Assembly: GCA_029860075.1 (NCBI GenBank)
Contig: JAOUBX010000001.1
Location: forward strand, 89,965 to 153,964
Direction: 5' to 3'
DNA length: 64,000 nucleotides
From: Deltaproteobacteria bacterium
GTDB lineage: Bacteria > Desulfobacterota > JADFVX01
The translations under genes were made by a program, and so were the position numbers. Shown one piece after another: positions 5,961 through 54,976 of the stretch. The notes below the pieces were generated by a model. The model searched no databases and was not told the origin of the DNA. It saw nothing but the letters and a program-made list of their open reading frames with translations. The number at the start of each line of letters is the position of its first letter. The first letter of the stretch is position 1.

Positions 5961-6040
5961 AAATTTAATTATTGGTTGCGGTAAGGGGAATTCTACTAAT
6001 AGGGTTTTTCTACAGCCTCGTTAGCTGATAAAACAATTAA
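5960..6040. other. Putative attI region between intI and the first cassette.
   Basis: The sequence tttttctacagcctcGTTAGCT near 5990-6020 resembles the 3' half of the downstream attC site (ttttcctacagactcGTTATATT at 10185-10206). It lies where attI is expected, immediately 5' of intI on the opposite strand. Confidence 0.35.
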
Positions 6041-6051
6041 GTGAGTAAGAT

Positions 6052-6699: not shown

Positions 6700-6707
6700 G
6701 TCTTTTT

Positions 6708-12659: not shown

Positions 12660-15600
12660 TCACTCAACCTTTAATGATGTAGGTGCGCTGAGTGGATTGT
12701 CGTCTAGATCATAAAACTCTAAATCATCTTCATTAGCAAACATCAATTCACCCAAGTACGGTATTTTAATAAGTTTGACAAATTGTTTAGTTCCATCCTC
12801 AAATGTTTTAAAAATAGATTTATTCACTGTAGTTCCTGCCATATGTGAATAAGTATCATAATCAGCACCACCAACTACAACATCACCTTTATAGCGCTGT
12901 TCTGAAACTGAGTTGTTTGGAAATACATAAAATTTCGCAGCTGCACTAAAACCATGCCATCGGTGATGTGTATCAGGCATGTAAAGCAAACGCTCCTGTA
13001 GTTCTTTTTTAAATCTAGCCATTTTAATAGCCCTGGGTTTACCCTCGAATATTTTTCTGGGTGTGTAATATGGAACACTGACAGATTCCAATGGCATTAT
13101 TACCGGTCCCTTACGAACTTGTGCTATCTGTGCTTCCGTGCGATCAATCATATCCCGCTCAATACCTTTCAAAATAGTCGTTAAACGATCATTAGGTACC
13201 CACTTTACTTTAATTTCATGACCGAATGTTGTCATATTTATATCACCAGCTTTATACGCATATTTCGAACCATCCCACTTAACCGCGACATTACTACTGA
13301 TATAAAAGTGCCAATCTCTATAATTACGTATGTTCAAATCTGCCCAAATTTGAAAAGCATCCCAATTATCAACAAAACCTTCTTCATCATTTTTCTTACT
13401 TCTTGGAATTTCAGTAATAGTTACATAATCCAAATTATTATCATCAAAAAGTTCTTGCACTCGTTTAAAGCTGTGTGTGTATTCTATTAAGCTCCCTATT
13501 GCAGAATCATCAACCCCGAAAACTTTGGGTTCAATGCCGGTACGCGCCCACCAGTCAATAGCATTTAAGAATGGAGTTGTATCCTCGTCTTCCGTTTCAG
13601 TGGATTTCAGCCTTTGATATTGTTGAGCAAATTCTGCTGCTATCGTCAATGCCAGTAGTGCCCCTGCTTTAGCTCTGGCTATCTTTGCCTGAGGTTTAGA
13701 TTGTGGTATACGCCTTAATATCCTCTGTTTTTCCTTTCTAGATAAATGACTGCCATTGACCAATTTATGTGCTAAATTTGGATCAATTCGCCATAACATG
13801 GAGACAGCTACATCTCGGTGTTTAGGTGTGATGCGCCCTGTTTCTCGTGCAACTTTCATTAATTTATGAAATCTTTTTATATTGTTAGAATAACTGTGCC
13901 TTTCACGAATGTTCCTCATATAGGGAACTGTTAAAGACTCAACAATTTCTGGTATCGGAATATCTTTCACCAATTTTTTGATTTTCTTTTTAAGGGTTTC
14001 TGGTGTTGCACCCTTAGCAACTATTTCTGTTGTTTTCTTTTCTAAAGCGGTAAGAGATCTCTTAACACTTCGGTAGGCTTCTCTCAATTTGGACTCATTC
14101 AAGCGTTCGTCAAGGTGTCTCCCACTTTGCTCGTGGATGGATAACGCTTCACGCAGCCGAGCCAAACGTCGATAAGCACTCTGAATTTCATTATTTGAAG
14201 AAATAGCGCTTTGTACCACCCCTTTGCCACGCCTAACAATTTCACCATCTGAAAATACTGTTAATGTAGCAACCTTATTGCCGGGACCAGGTTCCTTGGC
14301 AATATGAACATTAAAACCTAATTCAACCAAAGCTCGGTACGTGCTTTGGTTAAGTCTGAAGGTGCTGGCTCTATCTTTCGATTGAATAATAATATCGATA
14401 TCACCTCCGTTGTGATGGAGGTGATGCACTAGTCTTGCCGCACCGCGTGCATCACTGGTTTTCGCCAATTTACCCATATGATGCTGAAAGCCTAATAAAA
14501 TACGTACATTTCGAACGTTTTCCCGATATTCCTTTCCCATCGCACGCTCAAACTCCAATAACGTCTCACTTCTTACATCACCCACATCTAAGAATCGTAT
14601 GCCGCTGGGTTTATGGGTAACAAACATCAATAGACTCGCAGCATCCCCTATCCCATTAGGCGGTTTTTCTCCTTTTAACCGGACTTCTCTTAACTTTGCG
14701 AAGACTCGATTAAGGCCATACAAATCAATTCGTAAAACGTCATTTTCCAAATGTAGATGATGGTATCCTTTTTTATTTTCAGGTTGGGGTATGGCATTAA
14801 AATTAGTAGCTAATCCACTCTTCTTTAATTCAGTTTCAAGGGCTGTTATTCTTTTTGCAAACCCAGATCCTGGTGCATCAGGATTGGTAGCAAAAACAGC
14901 GGGGTAATATATATTATGTGCAAGTATACCTTCTTCCAAAACAATACGCTTGATTTGCCGGATATGATCTTCATGAAGGTGCTTTATAACTACTCCACTG
15001 ATTTCGTTAATTTTTAGAGCTTCTTTGACAGCTGCAATTGCATGAGGATAAACAGCATCAGTAGTGCCAGTATCATTAGCAAGCCCTTTGCCCCTGCCCA
15101 TATGAAACACACGTAGTGATTCTTTGCCACCTGTTGGGACAGCCAAAAGCGGATGTGCCGGGCTGTGCCCTAAACCCGGAGCAGGAACATGAGTAGCATA
15201 TCCGTAGGCAGGCAATATCGCCAGCCTATGACCTTGCCGGATCAGTAGCAGATCATCATCGTCAGGTTCAATAGATTTAGGCGGATTGGATGAGCTTAAA
15301 TTTAGTTTGAACGCAGATTTGGCATTACTGCTTGCTGGTTTATTTACCATGTTATAAACGAATTCTCGGGTTTGCCAACCGGCATCTTTAACTTTATATT
15401 TTAGAAGGGCGATTATTTTGCTGCCGTCTAATGGCAAATGACGCACTACAGCGCTATTATCTTTTGCGAAATTATTTATGTCTGCAGGTTGCAGACGGCT
15501 ACCTGATGGATGATCGGATTTAATAATCAAATCCCATTCTTCAACATCAATGTCATTCCTTTTCCATTTGAACGTCACAACATCCTCTGTAATTGCAGTT

Positions 15601-16841
15601 CCCGGTACAGGCCAGACAAGTTCTGGAGCTCGCATGACAATAGGTCGTAGAAGAAAACGGCTTGCGCTGGATCCAGCCTTGGAACTATGAACAATAAGGT
15701 CTCCACTATTATTCATGGCTACTATTTTATGGATTTTCAACTTCTCTCCGATAGGCAAAAGTTTATCCAATGGAGACATAATATTGTTATGCATAATAAA
15801 ATGTACAGGTTCAGATTCAGTATAGGCACCCTTAAATTCAACAACATAGCCAGCTATCATATTAGAATCATTAATCAAAACAGGTGTAAATTCTTGATAG
15901 TAGTCTGGCCTGGCAGGGGAAAGCATTCCCTCAAAAATATGGATATTTCCATCCTCTATTGTAAATATCTTCGTCGATCTGGGGTCTCCCTCTTCTATAT
16001 ATATGGGGCAGTCTGCTGGCTTAGCATAAATTATTTCTGGAGGATTTGTGGCGAATGCACCAACGAGTGTTCCTATGGAATTATTTGCCGAAACACCCCC
16101 TGGGCCTGGTAACTTTGTCGACAATAATAATGACTCGGATTGTAAATCGTATTGATAAATTATTGATTGTCGATTCGAGGTGTTTAAGCATGCAATTGGT
16201 GTCTGAAGATCGTATGGAGTATAATTCCAGTCATTTAGAACATGACCCTCCATTGGGGCTGGTACATAAGGTTTTCCTCCACCAACAAGTCTGTCCTGGT
16301 CGGTTAATAAAGGCATATAAAGAAATTCGAAATCACCAAAACGGGTATAGGATTTCAATTTATTATTTCGAAAAGTAAAATGTTTCCTTGCATAATGTTC
16401 ACTTGCTAATATAGTTCCTTTATTATTTAATGACGCGCTTTCCAGAGATGGATCAAGACTTTCTTTCTCGCTTATATTATATTCGAAAACTTTATGATCT
16501 TTTATATTAAAAAGCGACATTGCAGTTATTTCCTGATAGGTCATATTTCCCGTTTTCTTAGTAATGTATTTATTAGCTAGGACTTCTCCACGATCGTTGA
16601 GGCTAGTATACCTATAACCAGGTCTTGGTGTGATTTGACGAACAATTTTATTATCCTTCCAGATGCCATACATTTCTTTTCCATAGTTAATAAGTACTTC
16701 AGACTCGTTGTTGATGTCAATTGGAGTAGCATCTTTTATGCCCAGGTCAACAATTTCATATAAAGGCGGATTTGCAAATATTACAGGAGGGTGTGCTAAT
16801 AGGTTGGCTGCAATACAAAAATATAGACACGTATATTTCAT
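12660..16841 (-). CDS. Giant secreted protein (1393 aa) with a signal peptide, a beta-rich N-terminal region, an internal metallo-beta-lactamase-fold domain and a long coiled C-terminal region.
   Basis: N-terminal MKYTCLYFCIAANLLAHPPVIFA signal peptide. HLHEDH (HxHxDH) and downstream FVTHKP..DVGD and FQHHMG motifs define an MBL fold. Codon usage is AT-rich like the cassette array. Confidence 0.7.
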   Translation of the reverse strand: MKYTCLYFCIAANLLAHPPVIFANPPLYEIVDLGIKDATPIDINNESEVLINYGKEMYGIWKDNKIVRQITPRPGYRYTSLNDRGEVLANKYITKKTGNMTYQEITAMSLFNIKDHKVFEYNISEKESLDPSLESASLNNKGTILASEHYARKHFTFRNNKLKSYTRFGDFEFLYMPLLTDQDRLVGGGKPYVPAPMEGHVLNDWNYTPYDLQTPIACLNTSNRQSIIYQYDLQSESLLLSTKLPGPGGVSANNSIGTLVGAFATNPPEIIYAKPADCPIYIEEGDPRSTKIFTIEDGNIHIFEGMLSPARPDYYQEFTPVLINDSNMIAGYVVEFKGAYTESEPVHFIMHNNIMSPLDKLLPIGEKLKIHKIVAMNNSGDLIVHSSKAGSSASRFLLRPIVMRAPELVWPVPGTAITEDVVTFKWKRNDIDVEEWDLIIKSDHPSGSRLQPADINNFAKDNSAVVRHLPLDGSKIIALLKYKVKDAGWQTREFVYNMVNKPASSNAKSAFKLNLSSSNPPKSIEPDDDDLLLIRQGHRLAILPAYGYATHVPAPGLGHSPAHPLLAVPTGGKESLRVFHMGRGKGLANDTGTTDAVYPHAIAAVKEALKINEISGVVIKHLHEDHIRQIKRIVLEEGILAHNIYYPAVFATNPDAPGSGFAKRITALETELKKSGLATNFNAIPQPENKKGYHHLHLENDVLRIDLYGLNRVFAKLREVRLKGEKPPNGIGDAASLLMFVTHKPSGIRFLDVGDVRSETLLEFERAMGKEYRENVRNVRILLGFQHHMGKLAKTSDARGAARLVHHLHHNGGDIDIIIQSKDRASTFRLNQSTYRALVELGFNVHIAKEPGPGNKVATLTVFSDGEIVRRGKGVVQSAISSNNEIQSAYRRLARLREALSIHEQSGRHLDERLNESKLREAYRSVKRSLTALEKKTTEIVAKGATPETLKKKIKKLVKDIPIPEIVESLTVPYMRNIRERHSYSNNIKRFHKLMKVARETGRITPKHRDVAVSMLWRIDPNLAHKLVNGSHLSRKEKQRILRRIPQSKPQAKIARAKAGALLALTIAAEFAQQYQRLKSTETEDEDTTPFLNAIDWWARTGIEPKVFGVDDSAIGSLIEYTHSFKRVQELFDDNNLDYVTITEIPRSKKNDEEGFVDNWDAFQIWADLNIRNYRDWHFYISSNVAVKWDGSKYAYKAGDINMTTFGHEIKVKWVPNDRLTTILKGIERDMIDRTEAQIAQVRKGPVIMPLESVSVPYYTPRKIFEGKPRAIKMARFKKELQERLLYMPDTHHRWHGFSAAAKFYVFPNNSVSEQRYKGDVVVGGADYDTYSHMAGTTVNKSIFKTFEDGTKQFVKLIKIPYLGELMFANEDDLEFYDLDDNPLSAPTSLKVE

Positions 16842-17459: not shown

Positions 17460-18539
17460 ATGCCGAAAAAAGATTATTATAAAATGCTGGAAGTAGATAA
17501 GAAGGCAAGTGATGCCGACATAAAGAAGGCCTTTAGAAAGCTTGCAAGAAAATACCATCCCGATGTTAATCCCAACAACGAAGAGGCGGAAGCAAAGTTT
17601 AAGGAGATCAACGAAGCCTATGAGGTGCTCGGTGATACTGAAAAAAGGAAGCAGTACGATACGATGGGTGACAGCTTTTTTGAAGGTTTCAGGCCGAGCG
17701 GCAGCGGCTTTGAAGGATTCAGTTCTCAGGATTTTGAAAACCTCTTTAGGGGAACAGGCGGATTTGAAGATATTTTCGGGGGGATTTTCGGTCGTGGCGG
17801 AGCCCGGCGTGCTGCGCCTCAAAAAGGTGAAGACCTTAAGTACAGGATGGAAATTGACCTGGAAGAGGTTGTGACCGGCAAAAAGGTGGATATCTCCTTT
17901 TATCATTCGACGAGTTGCACAAGCTGTGGTGGCAGTGGCGAGAAGCCGGGAGGCAAGAGTGATACCTGCTCCCGCTGCGGAGGAAGTGGTAATGCAGCCC
18001 TTTCACGAGGCTTTATGAGGGTGCAGCAGACCTGCCCTGCCTGTAACGGCGCCGGCAGAGTCAATGTGGAGGCCTGTTCTTCCTGTGGAGGGAAGGGGGA
18101 GATTGCAAAGCATGAAAAGCTGAGTGTCAAAATACCGGCCGGGGCAGATAACGGTTCCATGATAAGGCTGGCAGGAAAGGGGAATGCCGGGAGGCATGGC
18201 GGGCCATCGGGAGATCTCTATATTGAAACGAAGATAAGGGATAAGGCGGGCTTTAAAAGGGATGGCCGGGATATTACCGTTGAAGCCCTTATCTCTGTGC
18301 CGCAGGCTATTTTAGGTGACACCATAGAAGTGTCTACTATTGATGGCAAGGCAAGTATGAAAATACCTAAAGGGACACAAAATGGCCAGAAATTCAGGCT
18401 GAAAGGGAAGGGTCTTCCTCCTATGGGCGGTGGAAAGCGGGGAGAACAGTATGTTCTTGTTACCGTTAATATTCCGAAGAACCTTGACGGGGAGGCGGAG
18501 GACCTTGTCAGGGCTCTCGGCAGAAAGTTAAGGAGTTAG
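17460..18539 (+). CDS. dnaJ: DnaJ-family chaperone (J domain, G/F region, four CxxCxGxG zinc-finger repeats, C-terminal substrate-binding domains).
   Basis: J domain DYYKMLEVDKKASDADIKKAFRKLARKYHPD with the HPD motif. Zinc-finger repeats CTSCGGSG, CSRCGGSG, CPACNGAG and CSSCGGKG. Confidence 0.9.
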   Translation: MPKKDYYKMLEVDKKASDADIKKAFRKLARKYHPDVNPNNEEAEAKFKEINEAYEVLGDTEKRKQYDTMGDSFFEGFRPSGSGFEGFSSQDFENLFRGTGGFEDIFGGIFGRGGARRAAPQKGEDLKYRMEIDLEEVVTGKKVDISFYHSTSCTSCGGSGEKPGGKSDTCSRCGGSGNAALSRGFMRVQQTCPACNGAGRVNVEACSSCGGKGEIAKHEKLSVKIPAGADNGSMIRLAGKGNAGRHGGPSGDLYIETKIRDKAGFKRDGRDITVEALISVPQAILGDTIEVSTIDGKASMKIPKGTQNGQKFRLKGKGLPPMGGGKRGEQYVLVTVNIPKNLDGEAEDLVRALGRKLRS

Positions 18540-18543
18540 AAAG

Positions 18544-18921
18544 ATGAAGAGGAAAGGTTATATAATCAGCCAGGCTGTTGAAATGACGGGAACCGATGAA
18601 GTAACCCTTCTTTCCTATGAAAGGGAGGGACTTATTGAGCCCCTTATTGAAGAGGGGGAGCGGTTCTATACTGATGAGCATATTGAGAAGGTCATGATGA
18701 TAAAAAGACTTACCGATGATCTCGGTGTCAATATGGCCGGTGTGGAAGTCATTTTAAACATGCGTGAGCAGATGCTCAATATGCAAAGCGAGTTTGAAAA
18801 GATTATCGATGAGATGAAGCTCGGCATTTTGAAAGAACTGAATGATTATGAGTCGAGGCTTAGAAGGCCGAGGATTGAAAGTAAGGCGGGAAAATGCTTA
18901 AAGGTTAAGATTGAAGATTAA
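18544..18921 (+). CDS. MerR-family transcriptional regulator (HspR/CbpM-like).
   Basis: N-terminal helix-turn-helix YIISQAVEMTGTDEVTLLSYEREGLIEP is typical of MerR/HspR. It sits immediately downstream of the dnaJ-like gene, as in hspR and cbpA-cbpM arrangements. Confidence 0.75.
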   Translation: MKRKGYIISQAVEMTGTDEVTLLSYEREGLIEPLIEEGERFYTDEHIEKVMMIKRLTDDLGVNMAGVEVILNMREQMLNMQSEFEKIIDEMKLGILKELNDYESRLRRPRIESKAGKCLKVKIED

Positions 18922-21337
18922 TCCCCTTCCCCGCATCATCCTTTCCCGGCCCCTTATAAGCATAACTTTTCTCTACATTGCCGGACTTTTTGCAGGGAAA
19001 ACTTTTGAGCCTGAATATATTTTCTCTCTTCAGCTTTTGTCTCTCCTTTCGCTTCTGCTTCTTATTTCTTTCTTCTATTTTAAAGATATATTTCCTTACG
19101 CCCTTTTTCTTCTCTTTTTCCCTCTCGGTTTATTTCTCTCACAAGGTTTTGGTTTTATTTATGCCGGAAAAGAAAATGTAAGCCAATATGCGGGCCGGGG
19201 GAGGATAATCGTTGAAGGAACCGTCCTGGAAAGAAATGACCTGGGGCCTGAAAAAAAACTCTTAATAGAGACGGCAAAGGTTTTTGAGAAGGAAAGTGCA
19301 GCCGTCGTCAGGGGGCGCATACTGCTTACGCTTAAATGGGGTGGTGAAAGTATCGTGCCCGGCCAGAGGGTCAGGTTCAGGGGGAAACTTAAGGAACCAC
19401 GCAATTTCGGTAATCCCGGTCACTTTGATTATGAAAAATATCTGCATGAACGGGGAATCTATGGGACATCCTATTTGAAAGATGATGATTCGCTGGCTGT
19501 TATCGGCGGCGGCAGTCCTCTTTGGGAAAGGGTTTATTCATACAGGCGGAAGGTAAGCGCCGCCATTGAGGAAAGCAGTTTAAAAGAGTCGAGGGGGATT
19601 ATTGCCGCCATCAGCATCGGTGACCGCGGCTATATTGAAGAAGATCTCATGAGGGCATTCAGAAAGTCGGGGGTAGCGCACCTCCTGGCTATTTCAGGCC
19701 TCCATATGGGGATTGTGGCCTTTTTCTTTTTCAGGCTTTTCAGGTGGTTGCTTTCAAGGTCCGAGAGTATTCTTCTTTACAACCTGGCAGGCAAGGGGGC
19801 TGCCATGGCGACACTTATTCCGCTTACAATATACCTCCTTGCCTCGGGCATGGCAACTTCTGCCGTGCGGGCATATATTATGGTTGTTATTTTCCTCTTT
19901 TCCCTTATCATGGAAAGAGAGGCGCATATTTATAACACGATCGCCTTTGCAGCCCTTGTGATCCTCTTTATATGGCCGCCGGCTCTTTTTGAGGTTGGCT
20001 TTCAGCTCTCATTTATTGCTGTCTTGTCAATTGTTTACCTTGTTCCCAAACTGGAGCGATTCCCCGGGACAGGAAGGAAGAGTCAAAAAAAAGACTGGAA
20101 AAGCAAAATGGCAACCTTTGTCATTGTCTCTATTGCAGCATCACTGGGAACGGCTCCCCTGACTGCTTACTATTTTACGGAGGTCTCTTTTTCTGCCGTC
20201 ATATCAAATCTCCTCATTATTCCACCGGGAGCTTTTATTGCAGTCCCTCTTTCAAGTCTCGCTCTTTTTCTCTCAATATTTTCAATGGAAGCGGCAAAGG
20301 TCATGTTTTTCGCGGCCTCTGCTGTTATGAAACTTCCCATTCTGCTCGCTCAGCATATCTCATCCATACCTTATTCATCATCCATTGTTGTCCCGCCATC
20401 AGGGTATGAGATCGTTTTTTATTATCTTCTTCTCATTTTAATCTTCAGTTCCTATAGAAAAGTCGCTTTTTCAGCAATGCTTATCCTTCCCCTTGCTTTT
20501 ATGTTTTTTAAATTTTCGGATAATGGGCACGATGAATGGTCAGGGAAGCTAAGTGTGACCTTTATCAGCGTCGGCCAGGGAGAATCGGCTTTTATACGCT
20601 TTCCCCGGGGGAAAACAATGCTTATCGACGGGGGAGGGTTTTATGATAATTCCTTTGATGTGGGCCGCATGGTTTTGAGGCCTTTTCTTCTTTCCCGGGG
20701 TGTAAAAAGGCTGGATTACGTTGTCATTACCCATCCCCATCCCGATCATATGTATGGCCTTTTGCATATTGTTTCGGAATTTTCAGTCCGTCAACTCTGG
20801 ACCAACGGCATGCCGCCCTTCGATGATATATATGGTGAAATCCTGGATGTTTCAGAAAAAAAAGGGACCCTGAAAAAGGTGATAAACGCTTCATCCCCTC
20901 CTGTTGAAATTGAAGGGGTAAGGATAGAATTTTTACACCCGCCGCCGGGAGTGATGAGATTCAGATCAGGGACGGATATCAATAACGGATCGATTGTCAT
21001 GAAAGTGACTTTCGGTAATAAAAGTTTCCTTTTTACGGGAGATCTTGAAAAAGAAGGCGAAAGGAGACTATTAAGCAGCGACTATGATCTGAAGGCGGAT
21101 GTCATAAAAGTTGGTCATCACGGCAGTCTTACATCGAGCGCGAAGGCTTTTGTCAGGGCTGTTTCTCCCGATTATGCGCTTTTTTCGGTGGGTCATAATA
21201 ATCGTTTTCATTTTCCGAAGAAAGCAATTGTCAAACGCTACATGGATGTGGGAAGTTCTCTTTTAAGGACCGATGAATCGGGCGCCGTCACTTTTTTTAC
21301 TGATGGCAGGGAATTGAAAGTCAGCACATTCAGGTGA
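18911..21337 (+). CDS. comEC: DNA internalization competence protein ComEC/Rec2 (N-terminal TM region, competence domain, C-terminal MBL domain).
   Basis: LAISGLHMGIV competence-domain motif, more than 10 TM segments, and C-terminal VITHPHPDHMYGL ... VGHHGS metallo-beta-lactamase motifs. Confidence 0.9.
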   Translation: MKINPLPRIILSRPLISITFLYIAGLFAGKTFEPEYIFSLQLLSLLSLLLLISFFYFKDIFPYALFLLFFPLGLFLSQGFGFIYAGKENVSQYAGRGRIIVEGTVLERNDLGPEKKLLIETAKVFEKESAAVVRGRILLTLKWGGESIVPGQRVRFRGKLKEPRNFGNPGHFDYEKYLHERGIYGTSYLKDDDSLAVIGGGSPLWERVYSYRRKVSAAIEESSLKESRGIIAAISIGDRGYIEEDLMRAFRKSGVAHLLAISGLHMGIVAFFFFRLFRWLLSRSESILLYNLAGKGAAMATLIPLTIYLLASGMATSAVRAYIMVVIFLFSLIMEREAHIYNTIAFAALVILFIWPPALFEVGFQLSFIAVLSIVYLVPKLERFPGTGRKSQKKDWKSKMATFVIVSIAASLGTAPLTAYYFTEVSFSAVISNLLIIPPGAFIAVPLSSLALFLSIFSMEAAKVMFFAASAVMKLPILLAQHISSIPYSSSIVVPPSGYEIVFYYLLLILIFSSYRKVAFSAMLILPLAFMFFKFSDNGHDEWSGKLSVTFISVGQGESAFIRFPRGKTMLIDGGGFYDNSFDVGRMVLRPFLLSRGVKRLDYVVITHPHPDHMYGLLHIVSEFSVRQLWTNGMPPFDDIYGEILDVSEKKGTLKKVINASSPPVEIEGVRIEFLHPPPGVMRFRSGTDINNGSIVMKVTFGNKSFLFTGDLEKEGERRLLSSDYDLKADVIKVGHHGSLTSSAKAFVRAVSPDYALFSVGHNNRFHFPKKAIVKRYMDVGSSLLRTDESGAVTFFTDGRELKVSTFR

Positions 21338-22505: not shown

Positions 22506-22856
22506 ATGATTGAGTTAAGAATTTGTCCCCAATGCAACAAGGTTTTTTATTCTAACAGCAAAGAGTCTTCTCCTCCTTGCGTGTATTGTGGCTATGTACT
22601 CATAGAGAGATGTGAAGAGAGAAAGGAAGTATCACAGGATATGACACTTACCATTAACGGTCGAAAAAAGGGCGTAACACTAAAAGATTATTCTCCCAAT
22701 GGCGCTATGGTCGTTTATGTAGGCAGCGAAATTCCTGTTAACACTTCTTTCTTATTTGAAATAAGGGAATTGAATATTAAAAAAGCCGCTAAAATCGTTT
22801 GGTCAAAAAAAATAAACAAGTCCATATCGGCAACAGGGATTCGTTTTTGCCGGTAA
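22506..22856 (+). CDS. Zinc-ribbon plus PilZ domain protein (putative c-di-GMP receptor).
   Basis: CPQCN...CVYCGY zinc ribbon followed by RCEERKEV ... DYSPNGAMV, which fits the PilZ RxxxR...DxSxxG pattern. Confidence 0.6.
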   Translation: MIELRICPQCNKVFYSNSKESSPPCVYCGYVLIERCEERKEVSQDMTLTINGRKKGVTLKDYSPNGAMVVYVGSEIPVNTSFLFEIRELNIKKAAKIVWSKKINKSISATGIRFCR

Positions 22857-22876
22857 TGGGGAGCAGGGAGGAAAAA

Positions 22877-23497
22877 ATGAGAAAATATAAAATTAAAGGA
22901 CCCCAAATAGCTGCTTATGCTTTTTTTGCAATCCTTTTAATCTTTGCGGCGCCTAATGCGCTTGCTGAAGAAGCAGATGAGAGCAAGGCTAATAATCCTT
23001 CCGCTTACCTTATCGGTCCTGAAGATATTCTCGAAATCTCTGTCTGGAAGAATGAAGACTTGTCAAAAGTGGTAAGAGTAAGGCCTGACGGGGTGATTTC
23101 TCTCCCCCTCATTGGAGATGTGATTGCCGCCGGCCTCAGTCCGGCAGAATTGCAAAATATAATAATTGAAAAATTGAAAAAGTATCAGAATGCCGCTGTT
23201 GTTTCCGTCATTGTCGGCGAGGTTAACAGCTATAGAGTCTTTGTTGTCGGTGAAGTGGTAAGGCCTGATACGTATATATTGAGAAGAAAGACTTCGGTTA
23301 TTCAGGCCGTCGCCATGGCAGGCGGCTTTACGCCTTTTGCCAAAAAGAACAGGATTGTCTTGATCAGGGAAAAAGGGAATAACAACGGTAATGTTAAAAA
23401 GAAAATTCGCATTTACTTTGATGACATTGTAGATGCCGGTGAAAAATATGATAACAATTTAACCTTAATTCCGGGAGATACCCTCTTTGTCCCGTAG
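22877..23497 (+). CDS. Polysaccharide export protein (Wza/EpsE family; Poly_export plus SLBB domains).
   Basis: Signal peptide, then PSAYLIGPEDILEISVW...RPDGVISLPLIGDV...GLSPAELQ, which is characteristic of Wza-like exporters. The ATG at 22877 has a ggagg RBS; the six-frame ORF's earlier start lacks one. Confidence 0.85.
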   Translation: MRKYKIKGPQIAAYAFFAILLIFAAPNALAEEADESKANNPSAYLIGPEDILEISVWKNEDLSKVVRVRPDGVISLPLIGDVIAAGLSPAELQNIIIEKLKKYQNAAVVSVIVGEVNSYRVFVVGEVVRPDTYILRRKTSVIQAVAMAGGFTPFAKKNRIVLIREKGNNNGNVKKKIRIYFDDIVDAGEKYDNNLTLIPGDTLFVP

Positions 23498-24638
23498 ACC
23501 AGGCTTATTACTAATAATGATTATTTTAATGCAATCAAATTTAATGAGTAAGAGCGCCTTTGGAATGATGACGTTGAGCCCCTCTCTTGCCGTTAGTGAG
23601 CGATACCATAGTAATGTTGAGGCGAGCAGTACTGATGAAGAGGCTTCCGAAGATTACGAAACATCGATTAATCCGCAGATTGCTCTCCTTAATGAATGGG
23701 AGGGCCTCTCAATTACCGGTAACTACAGCCTCAATTCGAGGCTCTATGCGAAAGATGCCGATCGTAACTATGTAGGCCACACCTTTAGCCTGGCCATGGA
23801 TAAAGAGCTTACAAGGAATATATCCATGTTTTTTTCCGATTCTTATATTTATACAAAGGATTCCCGTGAAGCCCTTGAAAATCAGATGGAGCTGGGCCGG
23901 GGCACGGTCATTACAAACAGCGCGGCTTTGTCTTTGGCCTATACTATTAGTGAGAGGGCCTCATCAGGCATCGGCATATCACAAAGTACGACACTTTATG
24001 ATAATGAGGAGCTTTTTGACGATAGAACGGATGGCTTATCCCTGACTTATTCAAACAGGATGAGCCGCTATTTAACGTTGGATTTCAGTTATGCTTACAC
24101 GGTTTTCAACTATGAAAATGATTCTCATGTTGATGACCGGGAGATTCATAATATGAGCCTTGGCATAACAAGAATGTTAACGAGATCACTCACTTTTACC
24201 CTCACTGCCGGCGTGAATTATATGCCCGACATGGAATCCGATTATGACTGGACCGGCAATGGGGGACTTTCCAAATCATGGAGACGGACTTCTCTTGACC
24301 TTGCCTATACAAGAGCCGTAACAAACAGCGGCGGTTTGGTGGCGGAGGTTGTCATTAATGATCGCGGTTCTCTTCTTTGGCATATTAACAGGGCAAGGAC
24401 AGTCACATGGTCGCTTGAGGGGAGTTATTCAAAAAGCAGGAGTAAAGACACTGACGTGATAGACAACTATTCTTACAGTTATGGTCTTAATTGCAGCTGG
24501 CAAAGGGGCGAATGGACTATGCTCAATCTTGGTGTTACAAGGTTTGAACAAAAGACGGATGATCTGCTCACGAGAGAAGTGGAAAGTAATGCCCTTTTTT
24601 TGAGTATTGCATTCACTCCCGAAGGATGGAGATTATAA
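23487..24638 (+). CDS. Putative outer-membrane beta-barrel protein of the EPS locus (EpsL-like). TTG start.
   Basis: Signal peptide MSRRPGLLLIMIILMQSNLMSKSAFG, alternating amphipathic beta-strand composition rich in Y/S/T/N, and a terminal aromatic residue pattern. Position between the exporter and Wzz matches PEP-CTERM loci. Confidence 0.6.
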   Translation: MSRRPGLLLIMIILMQSNLMSKSAFGMMTLSPSLAVSERYHSNVEASSTDEEASEDYETSINPQIALLNEWEGLSITGNYSLNSRLYAKDADRNYVGHTFSLAMDKELTRNISMFFSDSYIYTKDSREALENQMELGRGTVITNSAALSLAYTISERASSGIGISQSTTLYDNEELFDDRTDGLSLTYSNRMSRYLTLDFSYAYTVFNYENDSHVDDREIHNMSLGITRMLTRSLTFTLTAGVNYMPDMESDYDWTGNGGLSKSWRRTSLDLAYTRAVTNSGGLVAEVVINDRGSLLWHINRARTVTWSLEGSYSKSRSKDTDVIDNYSYSYGLNCSWQRGEWTMLNLGVTRFEQKTDDLLTREVESNALFLSIAFTPEGWRL

Positions 24639-24639
24639 G

Positions 24640-26160
24640 ATGATAGCAGATACGAATAAAAATTTGATAGATCAGGTAGAGCCTTTTATCCGGAGAAAGT
24701 GGATAATCGTCATATCTTTCCTGCTGGTTTTTCCTCTGTCTGCCGCTTATGCCTTGATGATGCCCAAGTCATATCGTTCGACGACCTTAATACTCGTCGA
24801 ACAGCAGAAGGTTTCCGAACAATATGTGACACCCACAGACGCTACTCCCATTACGCAGCGTTTAAATACGATAAGTCAGCAAATAATGAGCAGGACCAAC
24901 CTGGAAAGTATCATCATGGATTTTAACCTTAATGCCCCCAGGGAGCCCGGGTTAAAGGAAAAAATATTAAATAAACTCGGTCTTTCAATGGATCGCACTC
25001 CTGTAATGGAAGTTCTCATTGAAGAGATGAAAGCCAATATTGAAGTGAATGTGCATGGCAGACGGCGAGGTTCGGGAGATGCATTCAGCATAAGCTTTGC
25101 GGGGAAGGACCCGGAAGTAACGAGGCAGGTAACCAATGCGCTGGCCACAATGTTTATTAATGCAAACCTTAAGATAAGAGAGCAGTATGCCGAGGGAACG
25201 ACGGATTTTATTTTAGGGGAATTGAAAAAAGCCAAGCTTGAACTTGAGGCCCAGGAAAAAGCGCTGTCGGATTTTAAAACGGAGCATATGGGGGCATTGC
25301 CTGAACAGCTGAATGCCAACTTAAGAACGCTTGACCGTTTGCAGTTGGAGTTGCAATCCGTGAGGGATAGCATTAAAAGCACGAAAGACAGGAAATTATT
25401 GCTTGAAGCTCAATATGCAGCGGGCAGGTTGGCGCCGACGGCAGGAACGGGAGATATATTGTTTCGCCTCAATGAAGAACTGGCCGGCTTGATAAATGAA
25501 GAAAGATCATTGCTGTCCCTGTATAAAGAAAACTATCCCGATGTCATTCTTGTTCGGGAACAAATCAGGAATTTGGAAACCCGGATAGCGGAAGAAAAGA
25601 AGAAGAAAGGCAAAAAAGGCAGAACCGCCGGAAATGGAGTGTCTTCCGGATCAAATAGTGAGCTAATGATGTTGGAAGGGCAGATACGATTATATATGAA
25701 CCGGGAATGGGAAATTAATAAACAGACGAGGCATTATGAAAAACGTGTGGAAGAAACGCCCTCTAATGAGCAAAGGCTGGCAGATTTGACAAGAGATTAT
25801 AATATTTCCTTTCAAAATTACCAGCAGTTGCTTGAAAAAAAGCTGAGCGCCCGATTGGCCGAGAATTTGGAAAAAAGGCAGAAAGGGGAAAAATTCAGGG
25901 TCCTCGACCCTGCCAATTTACCGGAAAAGCCTTTTAAGCCGAATGTAAAATTGATTGCCGCCATGGGTGGGGCTCTTGGTATCGGCCTCGGTATGGCCCT
26001 TGTTTTTCTTATTGAATTAATGAATCCGGCCTTCAGGAAAGCAGAGGATTTTGACGGTGTTTTTTCATTGCCTGTTTTAGGGCAAATCCCCCTGTTTGAA
26101 GATAAGCCTGAAAAAAATATTAAAAGCAGGTTGAAGGTAGTTAACGGTGGAAAGGCTTAG
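24640..26160 (+). CDS. Polysaccharide chain-length determinant protein (Wzz/GumC/EpsF family).
   Basis: N-terminal TM (WIIVISFLLVFPLSAAYALMMP), a long coiled periplasmic domain, and a C-terminal TM with a Gly-rich AAMGGALGIGLGMALVF segment. Confidence 0.85.
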   Translation: MIADTNKNLIDQVEPFIRRKWIIVISFLLVFPLSAAYALMMPKSYRSTTLILVEQQKVSEQYVTPTDATPITQRLNTISQQIMSRTNLESIIMDFNLNAPREPGLKEKILNKLGLSMDRTPVMEVLIEEMKANIEVNVHGRRRGSGDAFSISFAGKDPEVTRQVTNALATMFINANLKIREQYAEGTTDFILGELKKAKLELEAQEKALSDFKTEHMGALPEQLNANLRTLDRLQLELQSVRDSIKSTKDRKLLLEAQYAAGRLAPTAGTGDILFRLNEELAGLINEERSLLSLYKENYPDVILVREQIRNLETRIAEEKKKKGKKGRTAGNGVSSGSNSELMMLEGQIRLYMNREWEINKQTRHYEKRVEETPSNEQRLADLTRDYNISFQNYQQLLEKKLSARLAENLEKRQKGEKFRVLDPANLPEKPFKPNVKLIAAMGGALGIGLGMALVFLIELMNPAFRKAEDFDGVFSLPVLGQIPLFEDKPEKNIKSRLKVVNGGKA

Positions 26161-26164
26161 TTTA

Positions 26165-27184
26165 ATGAAGAAAAATGTGCTCAATTTAAATATCAATTCT
26201 TTGCAAATGGAAAATACCGGCGCCGCCGGCATGGAGAATTTTAATAAAAAGATGACTGAAAGTGACAAAAAACGGAATGTGAATGCTTCCAGTATATGGT
26301 GTATTGGCGGAGGGAAGGGGGGCATTGGAAAAAGCTTCATATCGTCTAACCTGGGCACCCTGCTGTCAATGCAATCGAAAAGAGTGCTGCTTGTCGATGC
26401 AGACTTTGGCGCCGCAAATCTGCATACCTTTATTGAATGCAGGCAAAGAATGTATTCTTTCTCAAAGTTTTTGAAAAGGGAGGGCTCAAATATCAGGGAC
26501 GTTATTTGTAAAACGTCATTTGATAATGTGGACCTTCTTAGCGGGGCCAATGATGTTCTCGATGTGGCGGATATCAAGGAGGGCGCCATGAGGCGTCTCA
26601 TAAGAGAATTAAGAAATCTTGACTATGATTATATTTTGATCGATGTGGGGCCGGGCACTTCATCTCATATGCTGGACCTGTTTCTTATGTCCGATCAGGC
26701 CCTTTTAATATCGACGCCGGAGCCCACATCCATTGAAAATACCTATCGTTTTTTAAAGGCCCTCTGTTTAAGGCAGATAAAGCAGCTTGTCAGCAGCGGG
26801 AAAGACGATGAATTGAAAGGGGCCCTTTGCGCGGCCCTGGGAATGACGGGTAACAGCAAGGCAAAGACCATCATTGAAATTTTTGAAAGGTTAACAACGC
26901 TTGATAACGGCCGGGGGAAATACCTTGATGCCGTCATAGGAGAAATGGATTTTTCACTCATCATTAATCAAACGAAAAATAAAGCCGATGAAAATATCGG
27001 TTTACAAATGAAACAGGCATGCTGTGACTATTTTAGTATAGAAATGAATTACCTTGGCCATATCAAATACAATGAAACCGTCGGGGATTCGCTTCGTAAA
27101 CGCATGTCTCTCGTAAAAGACTTCAGTAAAAGTGAGCCGGCTCTGTTGATGAAAGCCTGCCTGAAGAAGATGCATGATAAATGA
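26165..27184 (+). CDS. MinD/ParA-family P-loop ATPase associated with the EPS locus.
   Basis: Deviant Walker A GGGKGGIGKS, VDADFGAANL and the downstream Walker B ILIDVGPG. Confidence 0.75.
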   Translation: MKKNVLNLNINSLQMENTGAAGMENFNKKMTESDKKRNVNASSIWCIGGGKGGIGKSFISSNLGTLLSMQSKRVLLVDADFGAANLHTFIECRQRMYSFSKFLKREGSNIRDVICKTSFDNVDLLSGANDVLDVADIKEGAMRRLIRELRNLDYDYILIDVGPGTSSHMLDLFLMSDQALLISTPEPTSIENTYRFLKALCLRQIKQLVSSGKDDELKGALCAALGMTGNSKAKTIIEIFERLTTLDNGRGKYLDAVIGEMDFSLIINQTKNKADENIGLQMKQACCDYFSIEMNYLGHIKYNETVGDSLRKRMSLVKDFSKSEPALLMKACLKKMHDK

Positions 27185-27243: not shown

Positions 27244-28218
27244 TTGAAAAATGAACTGAAAAATTATTATGAGATTCTTGACCTCTCGCTGGATGCCGAT
27301 ATGAAAGCGCTTGAAAAAGCCTATAAAAAAGCGATGTCGATATATGGGCAGGATTCAGCCGCAATATATTCTCTTTATACGGAAAAAGAGAAGGAAATGA
27401 AGGTATCTAATATTAAAGAGGCATATCATACGCTTAAGGATCCCGAAGCACGGCGGCTTTATGATAGAAAACTTGATAACATGAGCGCAGCCCTTTCAGA
27501 GGATAGCAATTTGAAATCAGAACTTGCTGTAAGCGATGAGGTCGGTTTGCAGGATTGCCTTGTTTTGAAAAAGCCCCTTGCCGTTATGGAAGCCGGTGAT
27601 CCCCTGGCCGCAGAGCACTACCGCATTCTTTATACAAAGCTCGAGCAAATTCATATGAATAATAATGACAATGTCTTTGCCCTGACCAGCGCAATAAAGG
27701 GAGAAGGAAAGACAACGACATCGTTAAACCTCGCCTACATTATTAGTGAGGAATTCAGGAAAAAGGTAATTCTTCTGGAGACGGATTTAAGGAAGAATTC
27801 TATTGCTGAAAATTATCTTCAGCCTTTTAGGGGCAGCGGATTGGTTGATGTTCTCAGCGGGAGGGCCGATCTTGATGAGGCAATCTACCCTTTGAGTGAT
27901 AGTAACCTTTATGTTCTTCCTTCGGGAATGAGTGTAAGAAATTCAACGGAACTTCTGGCCTCTCCCAAAATGCCTCAAATCATTGAAATACTAAAGTCTG
28001 AATTCGATTATGTCATTATTGATTGCCCACCGGTGCTGCCTTTGGCTGATATGAATGTTTTATCAAAAATGGTAGATGATGTTTTGCTTGTTGTTCAGGC
28101 GGGGAAGACCCACAAAGATCTCGTTGCGCAGGCAATTAAAGCGCTTTCACGGGGGAAAGTAGCAGGATTTATTTTAAATGGAACAGAGAAGTCGGCTAAA
28201 AATTATTATTACTATTAA
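27244..28218 (+). CDS. BY-kinase-like (CpsD/EpsG-type) P-loop ATPase with an N-terminal degenerate J-like domain. TTG start.
   Basis: C-terminal FALTSAIKGEGKTTTSLNLAYII ... IIDCPPVLPLADMNV matches the tyrosine autokinase ATPase fold. The N-terminus NYYEILDLSLDADMKALEKAYKKAMSIYGQD...RRLYDRKLD mirrors a J domain but has YGQD in place of HPD. Confidence 0.7.
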   Translation: MKNELKNYYEILDLSLDADMKALEKAYKKAMSIYGQDSAAIYSLYTEKEKEMKVSNIKEAYHTLKDPEARRLYDRKLDNMSAALSEDSNLKSELAVSDEVGLQDCLVLKKPLAVMEAGDPLAAEHYRILYTKLEQIHMNNNDNVFALTSAIKGEGKTTTSLNLAYIISEEFRKKVILLETDLRKNSIAENYLQPFRGSGLVDVLSGRADLDEAIYPLSDSNLYVLPSGMSVRNSTELLASPKMPQIIEILKSEFDYVIIDCPPVLPLADMNVLSKMVDDVLLVVQAGKTHKDLVAQAIKALSRGKVAGFILNGTEKSAKNYYYY

Positions 28219-28249: not shown

Positions 28250-29644
28250 ATGTATTTCTTTTTTAATCGATATTTTCCGATAAAGCAACTTTACCTGTGG
28301 ATTTCAGAACTGATCATTATTTTTATGGCGCTGATCGCACTTGGCCATATTATCTCATTTGTTGTCGGATCGGCTATTCTTCATTATGATCCTTTTGTCA
28401 TAAAAATAATTCTTATGGTCGTTGTTTATATGGTTTCACTCTACTATTTTGATATTTATTCACCCGAGTTATACCGTCCGAGCCAGCAAATGCTTGTCAA
28501 GTTAGCCCAGGCCCTTGGCGTGGCAACGCTTGTGCTGATGGGCATTTATTATGTTTCGCCTCAAATCAGTGTGTGGAAGGGGATGCTGATTGTTAATGCG
28601 CTTGTGCTGCCCCTTCTTATCACGTCATGGCGTTCTCTTTTCACTCATGTAACCCACTTTCAGATGCCCAGAGAAAAAGTTCTCCTTATCGGCACAGGCG
28701 ACCTTGCCCAAAAGATTGGAAGCAAAATATACACCGAACCTCATCATGGACTGCATTTAGCGGGATTTATCGATGATAATCCCCATCAGGCAGACCAGGG
28801 AAATGTGAATCCCGGAATCGTCGGTGGTTATGGTGATATCGCCAGGGTTGTCAGGGAGAAAGAGGTGAGGCGGATAATCGTCGCCTTGGCCGACCGGCGG
28901 GCGAAACTTCCCATGTCGGCCCTCCTCGATTGTAAGCTAAAGGGCGTAACCATCGAGGAAGGTGAGACATTTAACGAACGGCTGGAGGGAAAAGTTCCTC
29001 TCGATCAGCTGAAACCGAGCTGGATGGTTTTTTCTGACGGCTTTAAATCGTTGAGGTCAAGGAAAATTCTGAAGCGTATCCTCGATATTTTTCTTTCAGC
29101 GCTTTTGCTGATTCCTGCGGCCCCCTTATTATTGATTACACCCCTCTTGATAAAACTCGAATCAAAGGGGCCTGCTATATTTAAACAAAAACGTGTCGGT
29201 GAAAACGGCAGGGAATTCGACATTTATAAATTTCGTTCCATGCGAACCGATGCAGAAGACAGTACGGGGCCTGTCTGGGCAAGGGAGAAAGATAACAGGA
29301 TAACCAAAATAGGCGCTTTTATAAGGAAGGTCAGAATTGATGAACTTCCTCAAATATTTAACGTCATCAAAGGAGATATGAGCTTTGTCGGGCCAAGGCC
29401 GGAACGGCAGTTTTTTGTCGATCAGCTGAAAAGAGAGATTCCCTATTTTGAAATGAGAACGGTCGTCAAACCGGGACTTACGGGCTGGACCCAGGTTAAA
29501 TACCCTTATGGCGCAACCATTGATGACGCCAGGGAAAAGCTTCAGTATGACATTTATTATATAAAAAATATGTCTCCTGTCCTTGATTTCATCATTTTCT
29601 TTATGACCATCAAGGTCGTTCTTTTCGGCAAAGGGGCCAGGTAG
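28250..29644 (+). CDS. Undecaprenyl-phosphate sugar phosphotransferase (EpsB/WbaP-type priming glycosyltransferase).
   Basis: Five TM helices, then ILDIFLSALLLIPAAPLL...KQKRVGENGREFDIYKFRSM...ITKIGAFIRKVRIDELPQIFNVIKGDMSFVGPRP, the hallmark of the bacterial sugar transferase family. Confidence 0.9.
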   Translation: MYFFFNRYFPIKQLYLWISELIIIFMALIALGHIISFVVGSAILHYDPFVIKIILMVVVYMVSLYYFDIYSPELYRPSQQMLVKLAQALGVATLVLMGIYYVSPQISVWKGMLIVNALVLPLLITSWRSLFTHVTHFQMPREKVLLIGTGDLAQKIGSKIYTEPHHGLHLAGFIDDNPHQADQGNVNPGIVGGYGDIARVVREKEVRRIIVALADRRAKLPMSALLDCKLKGVTIEEGETFNERLEGKVPLDQLKPSWMVFSDGFKSLRSRKILKRILDIFLSALLLIPAAPLLLITPLLIKLESKGPAIFKQKRVGENGREFDIYKFRSMRTDAEDSTGPVWAREKDNRITKIGAFIRKVRIDELPQIFNVIKGDMSFVGPRPERQFFVDQLKREIPYFEMRTVVKPGLTGWTQVKYPYGATIDDAREKLQYDIYYIKNMSPVLDFIIFFMTIKVVLFGKGAR

Positions 29645-54121: not shown

Positions 54122-54976
54122 TTGAATATAGATTTTTTATCTCATAAAGGCTTGATAATCAGAGCTTTCCTGCTGCTTGCTTCTTTTCTCCTGTTGTATT
54201 ACCCCATTATTGTTTCCCTTGTGCATGACTGGTCCATAGATGACAATTATTCCCACGGCTATATTGTTCCTTTCATGAGTTTATATCTTGTCTGGGAAAG
54301 GCGCAGTGAGCTTCTGTCTTTAAAGATTAAACCGAATTCATCGGGTTTGCTCTTATTGATAGTGGGTTTGTTTGTCATGATTCTGGGGCATGTAGGGGCC
54401 GAGCTTTTTCTCGGCAGGCTTTCCATTCTCATTGTTCTTTCAGGGATAGCGCTTTTTTTATTAGGGAAAGAGTATTTGAAGATATTGGCCTTTCCCATCG
54501 GTTTTCTTATCTTTATGATTCCTTTGCCCTCAGTCATCTTTAATTCTCTTGCCTTTCCTCTTCAGCTTTTAGCTGCCAGGGTTGCCGCCGGCATAATTTA
54601 CACCTGTGGTATCCCTGTTTTAAGGGACGGCAATATTATTCATCTGGCCAATACCACTCTGGAGGTTGCCGAAGCATGCAGTGGCATAAGATCACTTGTT
54701 ACGATAATGACACTGGCGACAATTTATGCCTATTTTATGGAAAGTAAGCGCTGGAAACAGGTGGTCCTTTTCCTCTCCTCTATTCCCATTGCCATTATCA
54801 CCAACAGCGCCCGCGTAACTTTTACGGGATTCCTGTCTCACTACTATGGTGATGAAGCGGCAAAAGGTTTTTACCATACCTTTGAGGGATGGTTTATGTT
54901 TGTTGTCGCTTTTTCGCTGTTGCTCCTTTTTGGGCTTCTTTTGAGAAAAATAACCTTTGGCCGCAAAGTACATTGA
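54122..54976 (+). CDS. xrtA: Exosortase (XrtA/EpsH family, 8-TM transpeptidase). TTG start.
   Basis: Hallmark DDNYSHG motif (HDWSIDDNYSHGYIVP), 8 TM helices, and conserved Arg and Cys in GIPVLRDGNII...ACSGIRSL. Confidence 0.9.
   Translation: MNIDFLSHKGLIIRAFLLLASFLLLYYPIIVSLVHDWSIDDNYSHGYIVPFMSLYLVWERRSELLSLKIKPNSSGLLLLIVGLFVMILGHVGAELFLGRLSILIVLSGIALFLLGKEYLKILAFPIGFLIFMIPLPSVIFNSLAFPLQLLAARVAAGIIYTCGIPVLRDGNIIHLANTTLEVAEACSGIRSLVTIMTLATIYAYFMESKRWKQVVLFLSSIPIAIITNSARVTFTGFLSHYYGDEAAKGFYHTFEGWFMFVVAFSLLLLFGLLLRKITFGRKVH

Follow-up and report, generated by a model that had tools for sequence, protein, structure and literature searches.

A J-like domain without HPD, fused to a tyrosine kinase of an exopolysaccharide locus, belongs to a family associated with MinD-like ATPases

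INTRODUCTION

Bacterial tyrosine kinases (BY-kinases) are central switches of capsule and exopolysaccharide (EPS) production. To our knowledge, their positioning, and any regulation that goes beyond the activator supplied by the polysaccharide co-polymerase (PCP), are poorly understood. J domains belong to a different world, that of Hsp70, and require a His-Pro-Asp (HPD) tripeptide for stimulation of the Hsp70 ATPase; we know of no earlier case of a J domain working with an ATPase other than Hsp70. The gene described here brings a BY-kinase and a J-like domain together. It lies at 27244..28218 (+ strand) in a 64,000-nucleotide stretch of DNA from a Deltaproteobacteria bacterium (the window; contig JAOUBX010000001.1, positions 89,965 to 153,964) and encodes, from a TTG start and with the stop codon included in these coordinates, a 324-amino acid protein composed of a J-like domain, a linker and a BY-kinase domain. 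Directly upstream of it lies a gene for a MinD-like ATPase (26147-27184), which an earlier interpretation of the window from its letters alone (the sequence-only reading) had not flagged. On the evidence of sequence comparison, the HPD-less J-like family to which this N-terminus belongs accompanies one MinD/FlhG-like subfamily of ATPases, and its members carry interchangeable output domains: a helix-turn-helix (HTH) domain of the HTH_25 type, an SH3 domain or, as here, a BY-kinase.

A J FOLD WITHOUT HPD

The J-like domain covers residues 7-74 (27262..27465, + strand) and is recognised by Pfam DnaJ (PF00226) over the whole length of the profile (positions 1-63 of 63), at 35.5 bits when the full protein is searched and 39.5 bits when only residues 1-80 are; the gathering cutoff is 27.8 bits. 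When a profile built from 50 N-terminal domains of the family was compared with the PDB, it matched solved J domains (E = 3.7e-15). An AlphaFold2 (AF2) model of residues 1-88, for which an alignment of the same number of family N-domains served as input, has a mean predicted local distance difference test (pLDDT) score of 83 and places helices at residues 8-11, 20-34, 47-65 and 67-86, the pattern of a J domain. In a Foldseek search of the PDB, this model has J domains for all of its top 50 matches; their target-normalised template modelling (TM) scores reach at most 0.85. The N-terminal domain is thus predicted to adopt the four-helix J fold with its helix II/III hairpin and, judged by these profile matches, it is a descendant of a J domain. 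This agrees with the sequence-only reading, which had proposed a J-domain-like N-terminus on the strength of its helix II/III pattern and had suggested a DnaJ profile search on residues 1-80 and a structure prediction as checks; the profile match lies above the cutoff and the predicted fold is that of a J domain, so that neither of the two outcomes which it had named as refuting came about.

The same reading had noted that GQD stands where HPD is expected, and here too the comparison bears it out. In a phmmer alignment of the N-terminus to E. coli DnaJ (1BQZ) the HPD columns are occupied by GQD (residues 35-37; 27346..27354, + strand), and after it the protein carries a five-residue insertion relative to 1BQZ, IYSLY (residues 41-45; 27364..27378, + strand). 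Neither feature is peculiar to this protein. One homologue search returned about 80 clusters (90% identity) that combine PF00226 and PF13614 in the same way. Their members are 320-348 amino acids long and come from metagenome-assembled genomes (MAGs) labelled Deltaproteobacteria/Thermodesulfobacteriota, Nitrospinota and Methylomirabilis. The N-terminus is shared by homologous kinases of exosortase loci, the survey of which had also been proposed. Across these clusters the J-like domain shows 36-74% identity, with 13 positions at least 90% conserved. In an alignment of 72 of these members, used for all column counts below, neither His nor Pro occurs at the first two HPD positions (35 and 36; 0/72), whereas Asp is found at the third in 46 of 72. 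The loop that follows is nearly invariant as S38-x-A40-x-Y42-S43-L44-Y45-[S/T], A40, Y42, S43, L44 and Y45 being each at least 90% conserved, and it varies less than most of the J scaffold. Neither E. coli DnaJ nor the DnaJ encoded in the window has the insertion; it is shared with the HTH-fused partners described below and, on these alignments, is a signature of the MinD-associated J-like family.

The domain therefore passes as a J domain by profile and by fold and fails by HPD; it is best described as a J-domain homologue and is not to be classed among the J-domain co-chaperones. With HPD lost and a conserved loop, D-S-x-A-x-Y-S-L-Y/F, gained, activation of Hsp70 by this domain is very unlikely from its sequence.

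A linker (residues 87-101; 27502..27546, + strand) joins the J-like domain to the kinase. It has pLDDT values below 50 in a full-length AF2 model that shows the two domains (mean pLDDT 87.6) and is probably disordered; with the linker at such low confidence, the full-length model carries no usable information on the arrangement of the two domains.

A MIND-LIKE ATPASE ACCOMPANIES THE J-LIKE DOMAIN

The proposed partner, encoded at 26147..27184 (+ strand), is a 345-amino acid MinD/FlhG-like ATPase whose closest solved relatives are FleN/FlhG and MinD. It contains a deviant Walker A motif (GGGKGGIGKS, 26306-26335) and a Walker B motif (26633-26656), and its catalytic residues K57, K62, D84, D86 and D166 are invariant among 20 orthologues. 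It differs from FleN by an insertion of about 50 residues between two aligned blocks, and it also has a variable N-terminal extension of about 50 residues. None of the curated NCBIfam models scores above its cutoff with this protein, or with the J-HTH and J-SH3 partners of its relatives.

The association of ATPase and J-like domain was examined in both directions. In the forward direction, 80 loci listed from species-representative genomes were searched with four hidden Markov models (HMMs), one each for J-like domain, MinD-like protein, kinase and PCP; here and below, locus counts are those among the loci listed. A MinD-like gene lies immediately upstream in 21 of the 23 J-bearing kinase loci for which this could be determined, and in none of the 61 loci that encode the nearest kinases without a J-like domain (Nitrospirota, Acidobacteriota). 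It is likewise missing beside the two closest J-less kinases, which have about 50% identity in the kinase domain, giving 0/63 J-less loci overall. Within the family, the EPS cassette is kept in Methylomirabilis and other MAGs with a ParA/MinD-like ATPase of about 345 amino acids between PCP and kinase, and the MinD-like gene of related cassettes often overlaps the kinase gene by 4 bp. In some acidobacterial J-less loci (L030, L034-L037 and others) the interval of about 1 kb between PCP and kinase (approximately 5750-6700) does hold a gene, which matches none of the four HMMs.

The two J-bearing loci without a MinD-like gene, L004 and L023, are sister sequences that both lack the YSLY loop motif, and as sisters they count as one event of co-loss. 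Divergence in this pair is concentrated in the loop. The identity of their kinase domains to those of YSLY-type members (0.47) equals that within the YSLY type (0.47), and the J scaffold is little altered (0.38 vs 0.43 within the YSLY type), whereas loop identity falls to 0.08 from 0.58. Among the homologues whose surroundings were compared, the one without the YSLY loop, P0072, has no MinD-like gene.

In the reverse direction, metagenome contigs were scanned with an alignment of the 20 MinD-like orthologues and the same HMMs were applied to the loci found. The frequency of a J-like domain, adjacent or fused, depends on how closely the ATPase resembles the orthologues: it is 22/24 for proteins scoring at least 250 bits with the MinD-like HMM and 2/4 at 215-250 bits, and then 3/26 at 170-215 bits and 1/14 below 170 bits. 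A rough neighbour-joining tree of the MinD-like proteins, the rooting of which is not reliable, places the 20 EPS-locus proteins in one clade beside the HTH-partnered lineages, with relatives that have no J-like neighbour more distant. A MinD-like subfamily of about 380 amino acids stands apart with HMM scores of 178-212 bits (L105, L109, L113, L119, L121-L132, L136, L139 and L140), and no J-like neighbour was found for it in the loci listed.

The J-like partners found on the metagenomic contigs have no kinase domain, and all ten that were tested consist of a J-like domain followed by HTH_25 (PF13413). They too lack HPD and have the same five-residue insertion, within a loop of the form D-S-x-A-x-Y-S-[L/V]-[F/Y]. 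These HTH-type partners form more than 1,100 clusters, many of them from Halobacteriovorax, Bacteriovoracaceae and Bdellovibrio, and go by generic names such as 'RodZ family HTH', 'J domain-containing', 'CbpA' or 'hypothetical'. When the J-like profile was run against 1.84 billion representative sequences, the top 150 matches comprised 70 J-like proteins with HTH, 26 with a kinase and 25 fragments, among other matches. A third architecture combines a YSLF-type J-like domain with a C-terminal SH3_3 domain (P0331, P0374, P0347; L167, L168); just upstream of its gene, and overlapping it by 4 bp, the short contigs concerned encode the C-terminal end of a MinD-like protein (E = 5e-17 and 7e-14). 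In the HTH_25 and SH3 types the second Tyr of the loop is usually Phe.

ATPase and J-like domain are also found in one polypeptide. Three single open reading frames (ORFs) encode MinD-like, J-like and HTH domains in that order (L104:3953-5477, L137:3-1766 and L146:395-2290); the fusions in L104 and L137 are related, and all three lie on high-GC metagenomic contigs. Their loop motif is degenerate, reading SGLY or, in L146, missing altogether. A further apparent fusion, in L158, was discarded, its ORF having ambiguous residues and a probable frameshift.

The standalone pairs of MinD-like and J-HTH genes are found in housekeeping surroundings (RluD, PgeF-like, TsaB, RseP) and not in EPS loci. In the set of modules L085-L126, a gene for an rluD-type pseudouridine synthase follows the pair in L091:4019-5653, L103:3995-5585 and L110:4025-5732, and in L091 and L110 it is followed in turn by a PgeF-like (Cu-oxidase_4) gene.

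THE KINASE DOMAIN

The remainder of the protein (residues 105-324; 27556..28215, + strand) is a BY-kinase domain, in keeping with the CpsD/Etk-type fusion proposed by the sequence-only reading. It scores 132.3 bits with the NCBIfam BY-kinase model TIGR01007 (cutoff 108.05), and its relatives in the PDB are VpsO (1.7e-29), BceF, Etk, Wzc and CapB. The best-scoring NCBIfam model is that of the XrtA-associated tyrosine autokinases, TIGR03018, at 148.7 bits, below its cutoff of 230.65. Walker A (KGEGKTT, residues 152-158; 27697-27717), Walker A' (ILLETDLRK, 27769-27795) and Walker B (YVIIDCPP, residues 256-263; 28009-28032) lie on the + strand, and the protein ends in a Tyr cluster, YYYY (residues 321-324; 28204-28215). 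G155, K156, D260, P262 and P263 are invariant across the 72 sequences; conservation is at least 90% at Y321 and at Y323, and the consensus of the family ends in KKYYY. With its TIGR01007 match, Walker A and B motifs, Tyr cluster and closest solved relatives, the kinase is probably competent.

Two motifs deviate. In Walker A' the first Asp is replaced by E179 (at least 90% conserved), with D181 invariant and the Arg present. The ring-interface motif known from CapAB and Wzc as EX2RX2R is non-canonical, reading E124-HY-R127-IL-Y130 with Tyr for the second Arg (27613-27633). Both variants also occur in the closest J-less kinases (P0066, P0082, P0084) and are clade-wide; they are therefore unrelated to the J-like domain. 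Taken by domain content and locus, the gene product is a cytoplasmic CapB/CpsD-type tyrosine autokinase of an XrtA/PEP-CTERM EPS locus. NCBI lists an identical 324-amino acid protein with the same start, P0001; it derives from a 'Deltaproteobacteria' MAG and was automatically named 'polysaccharide biosynthesis tyrosine autokinase'.

WHAT THE J-LIKE DOMAIN MAY DO

Adjacency, translational coupling, single-ORF fusions, the graded dependence on ATPase similarity and the relaxation of the loop, specifically, where the ATPase gene has been lost suggest, taken together, that J-like domain and ATPase are direct functional, and probably physical, partners. We lean, by a modest amount, towards the view that the J-like domain serves the MinD-like ATPase as an adaptor and that in this locus it tethers the BY-kinase to the product of 26147-27184. 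The wider proposition is more tentative and, in our estimate, falls a little short of an even chance: that the J fold has been re-targeted from Hsp70 to a widespread MinD-like subfamily of the MinD/ParA ATPases as a binding and possibly stimulating adaptor, with the C-terminal output domain specifying the cargo, such that in XrtA/PEP-CTERM loci the kinase, as the gate of EPS polymerisation and export, has come under the spatial or temporal control of a positioning ATPase. In such a scheme a J-fold domain would have been added, with a flexible linker, to the N-terminus of a BY-kinase, and this domain would dock the kinase onto the ATPase encoded immediately upstream. Through the kinase, the polymerase and export machine of PCP, Wzy and Wza type would be linked to the MinD-like ATPase, whose nucleotide-dependent dimer cycle would control where or when assembly and autophosphorylation of the kinase take place. 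The domain identities, the loss of HPD, the conserved loop and the genomic associations are observed directly; contact between J-like domain and ATPase, any stimulation of the latter and an influence on EPS are inferred from them. MinD-like ATPases that position secretion or polysaccharide machines have precedents in BcsQ and TadZ (PMC11407121).

Several points weigh against this adaptor role. The close MinD-like relatives in L093 and L099 have no detectable J-like neighbour, and the sequence of the ATPase in the window contains no obvious C-terminal amphipathic helix for membrane targeting. The kinase-fused clade is probably monophyletic, so that the co-occurrence counts do not represent independent events, and the co-loss of loop and MinD-like gene rests on a single event. 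The subclade without the ATPase gene keeps its J scaffold, which may indicate a second, ATPase-independent role. Finally, all of the sequences come from MAGs or metagenomes, and the scans of genomic and metagenomic loci were pattern-limited, so that the counts are those of a sample.

The sequence-only reading had itself offered a different role, that of a protein-interaction module recruiting or mimicking chaperone contacts. An interaction role remains plausible; the chaperone part found no support, with no link to DnaK or DnaJ emerging. In its strongest form this explanation would have the degenerate J domain bind DnaK/Hsp70 without stimulating it, or compete with DnaJ, and so recruit or sequester the chaperone at the EPS machine. 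True J-domain homology is in its favour, as are the basic residues 28 and 29 of helix II, which correspond to DnaJ K26 and R27, and the Asp kept by many members at the third HPD position. Yet the HPD His and Pro are missing throughout the 72 homologues, the loop carries its insertion, and the equivalent of DnaJ R22 is Glu in most members. The genomic context tells against it as well: the J-like domain tracks the MinD-like ATPase and no chaperone gene. The window does contain a genuine DnaJ gene about 10 kb upstream, as had been stated (17460..18539, + strand, 9.7 kb from the kinase gene; TIGR02349 410 bits against a cutoff of 377; HPD at residues 33-35, nucleotides 17556-17564). Its presence in the same window could be read as support, but it is followed by a gene for a 125-amino acid HspR-like repressor of the MerR type, with which it forms a separate pair (17460-18921, + strand), and ComEC (18911-21337) stands between this pair and the EPS locus. 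No dnaK or grpE was identified among the window ORFs examined. On balance we regard a chaperone-contact role as quite improbable. A functional Hsp70 co-chaperone was rejected outright, as HPD is missing in all members and the loop carries an insertion.

A role within the kinase itself is unlikely, too. Here the J-like domain would control assembly of the BY-kinase ring, or the Tyr residues of YSLY would be phospho-acceptors that switch the kinase, in either case independently of the MinD-like protein. Two conserved loop Tyr residues in a protein that is itself a tyrosine kinase invite this idea; the flexible linker could let the loop reach an active site, the J scaffold is kept in the subclade that lost the MinD-like gene, and the departure of the ring-interface motif from EX2RX2R makes an alternative aid to oligomerisation conceivable. 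But that departure, like the one in Walker A', is shared by the closest J-less kinases, and the Y-S-L-Y/F loop is equally conserved in HTH_25 and SH3 partners, which have neither a kinase domain nor a kinase in the locus and in which the second Tyr is usually Phe. Phosphorylation by a BY-kinase cannot therefore explain the conservation of the loop, and YSLY as a phospho-acceptor was rejected as the main explanation. To the notion that the domain is a functionless relic of an accidental fusion between a neighbouring J-HTH gene and the kinase we give almost no credence. The canonical motif is indeed lost and the gene order makes a fusion origin plausible, but the domain has been maintained across the roughly 80 clusters with its 13 highly conserved positions, and most of the scaffold varies more than the loop does.

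THE EPS LOCUS AND ITS SURROUNDINGS

TIGR03013, TIGR03006 and TIGR03019, all above cutoff, together with the exosortase identify the locus as an EPS cluster of the XrtA/PEP-CTERM type, on the basis of these profile matches. The exosortase, which defines the locus type, is encoded at 54122..54976 (+ strand; PF09721, 270.5 bits). First in the order of the cluster is a LuxR/GerE-type regulator (from 21676). Next come a small PilZ-like ORF (from 22506, see below) and, at 22799..23497 (+ strand), a Wza-like polysaccharide export protein (TIGR03027, 138 bits, below cutoff), and a Poly_export match occurs at the position of this gene in related loci. An outer-membrane protein (from 23487) lies between it and the PCP.

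The PCP is a chain-length determinant of the Wzz/GNVR type (24607..26160, + strand; 517 amino acids; TIGR03007, 253.6 bits, below the cutoff of 278.85), and its gene overlaps the start of the MinD-like gene by 14 nt. Its second transmembrane segment (25951-26022) is followed at 26035-26091 by the cytoplasmic tail RKAEDFDGVFSLPVLGQIP, which we take to resemble the CapA activator peptide of split BY-kinases. With such a CapA-like tail, activation of the kinase by the PCP is, by analogy, probably conventional and the J-like domain an addition to it. That the J-like domain itself might serve as the docking site for the PCP was considered and judged unlikely, as the PCP has this tail and J-less relatives of the kinase pair with equivalent PCPs.

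Downstream of the kinase gene is the priming glycosyl-phosphotransferase of the XrtA/PEP-CTERM system (28250..29644, + strand; TIGR03013, 476 bits against 393), then an AsnB-like amidotransferase and an acyl-CoA ligase and, further on, a TIGR03006 deacetylase (290 bits against a cutoff of 276), a TIGR03019 FemAB-like protein (295 bits against 260) and glycosyltransferases. In related cassettes a NusG-like paralogue (PF02357) is present (L001:10439-10927, L002:9402-9887, L004:10336-10827 and L165:2766-3284); it is apparently absent from the equivalent position of the window, where the glycosyltransferase is directly followed by the amidotransferase.

Some other genes of the window deserve mention. 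Upstream of the Wza-like gene, 22506-22856 (+ strand) encodes a small, PilZ-like protein of 116 amino acids with an N-terminal, zinc-ribbon-like CxxC…CxxC pattern; equivalent ORFs in L003 and L004 give weak PilZ matches, a hint of cyclic di-GMP input to the EPS locus. A UDP-glucose/GDP-mannose dehydrogenase is encoded at 60745-62136 (+ strand). In E. coli and B. subtilis, Ugd enzymes are among the classic targets of BY-kinases, which makes this dehydrogenase a candidate substrate. Very large ORFs flank the region, at 12660-16841 (- strand, 1393 amino acids) and at 55339-60525 (+ strand, 1728 amino acids); the latter lies just past the exosortase and could encode a PEP-CTERM-type or other secreted substrate.

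COMPARISON WITH KNOWN SYSTEMS

The sequences discussed here are already public under automatic names, and no paper or curated model was found for a BY-kinase with a J domain or for a J-like partner of a ParA/MinD ATPase. Literature searches that combined BY-kinase with J domain, PEP-CTERM with DnaJ, MinD/ParA with J-domain, and Bdellovibrio ParA with DnaJ or HTH returned nothing relevant. The architecture is not mentioned in the main text of a 2023 survey of J-domain proteins (PMC10410713), nor are DnaJ or the J-domain mentioned in a 2024 review of ParA/MinD ATPases (PMC11407121). The MinD-like ATPase and its HPD-less J-like HTH_25 protein make up a large, apparently undescribed two-gene module that is abundant in Bdellovibrionota; of the five ParA/MinD ATPases of Bdellovibrio, only one has been studied (PMC11407121). 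Should the adaptor role be correct, a MinD-like ATPase would be added to the regulators of BY-kinases with a J-fold domain as the coupling device; the concept of the J domain would widen, as would the list of adaptors to ParA/MinD ATPases. The loop motif lends itself to simple mutational experiments.

As a kinase, the protein resembles the split, Firmicutes-type BY-kinases CapB and CpsD in being a separate cytoplasmic P-loop kinase with Walker A and B motifs, a variant of Walker A' and a C-terminal Tyr cluster, encoded after a PCP with two transmembrane segments whose tail (…LPVLGxIP…) resembles the CapA activator peptide. It departs from them in its 86-amino acid N-terminal J-fold domain and linker, in the MinD-like gene interposed between PCP and kinase, and in its motifs, with Glu for the first Asp of Walker A' and E-x2-R-x2-Y for EX2RX2R. 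With the TIGR03018 kinases it shares the type of locus and its place there, after the chain-length determinant and before the TIGR03013 glycosyltransferase, but its score falls below the cutoff of that model, which spans the kinase domain only and includes neither a J-like domain nor a MinD-like neighbour in its definition.

As a J-domain homologue, the N-terminus shares with DnaJ, CbpA, DjlA and HscB the four-helix fold and the scaffold motifs YYE-L, I-x-x-AY, AY-x-L and R-x-x-YD; unlike them, it has no HPD and carries a five-residue insertion with a motif of its own. The protein is also unlike canonical J proteins in having no glycine/phenylalanine-rich (G/F) region, zinc finger or client-binding domain, and its genomic partner is a MinD-like ATPase and not Hsp70. 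Retention of the J fold as an interaction module after loss of HPD is known from the mitochondrial protein Pam16/Tim16, and a 'pseudo DnaJ' (2CUG) is among the Foldseek matches of the N-domain. Those proteins, however, still act within Hsp70 systems, one way being to pair with a true J protein, whereas the partner proposed here lies outside Hsp70 and the loop of the present family has gained a conserved motif of its own. A kinase and a J domain also share one polypeptide in the DNAJB1-PRKACA chimera, which as J-PKAc is the top Foldseek match of the N-domain, and in GAK/auxilin-2. These proteins have an unrelated kinase fold, keep HPD and act on Hsp70, and the likeness is one of architectural coincidence only.

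The gene pair, finally, recalls ParA-ParB, MinD-MinE and McdA-McdB, and above all BcsQ and TadZ/CpaE, in which a deviant-Walker-A ATPase adjoins, and is often translationally coupled to, a small partner that links it to its cargo. It differs from the ParA/MinD systems reviewed to date in that the proposed partner has a J fold (PMC11407121); the putative cargo is a BY-kinase, and the ATPase has no evident membrane-targeting helix. The system is thus a variant both on the BY-kinase systems and on those that pair a ParA/MinD ATPase with an adaptor.

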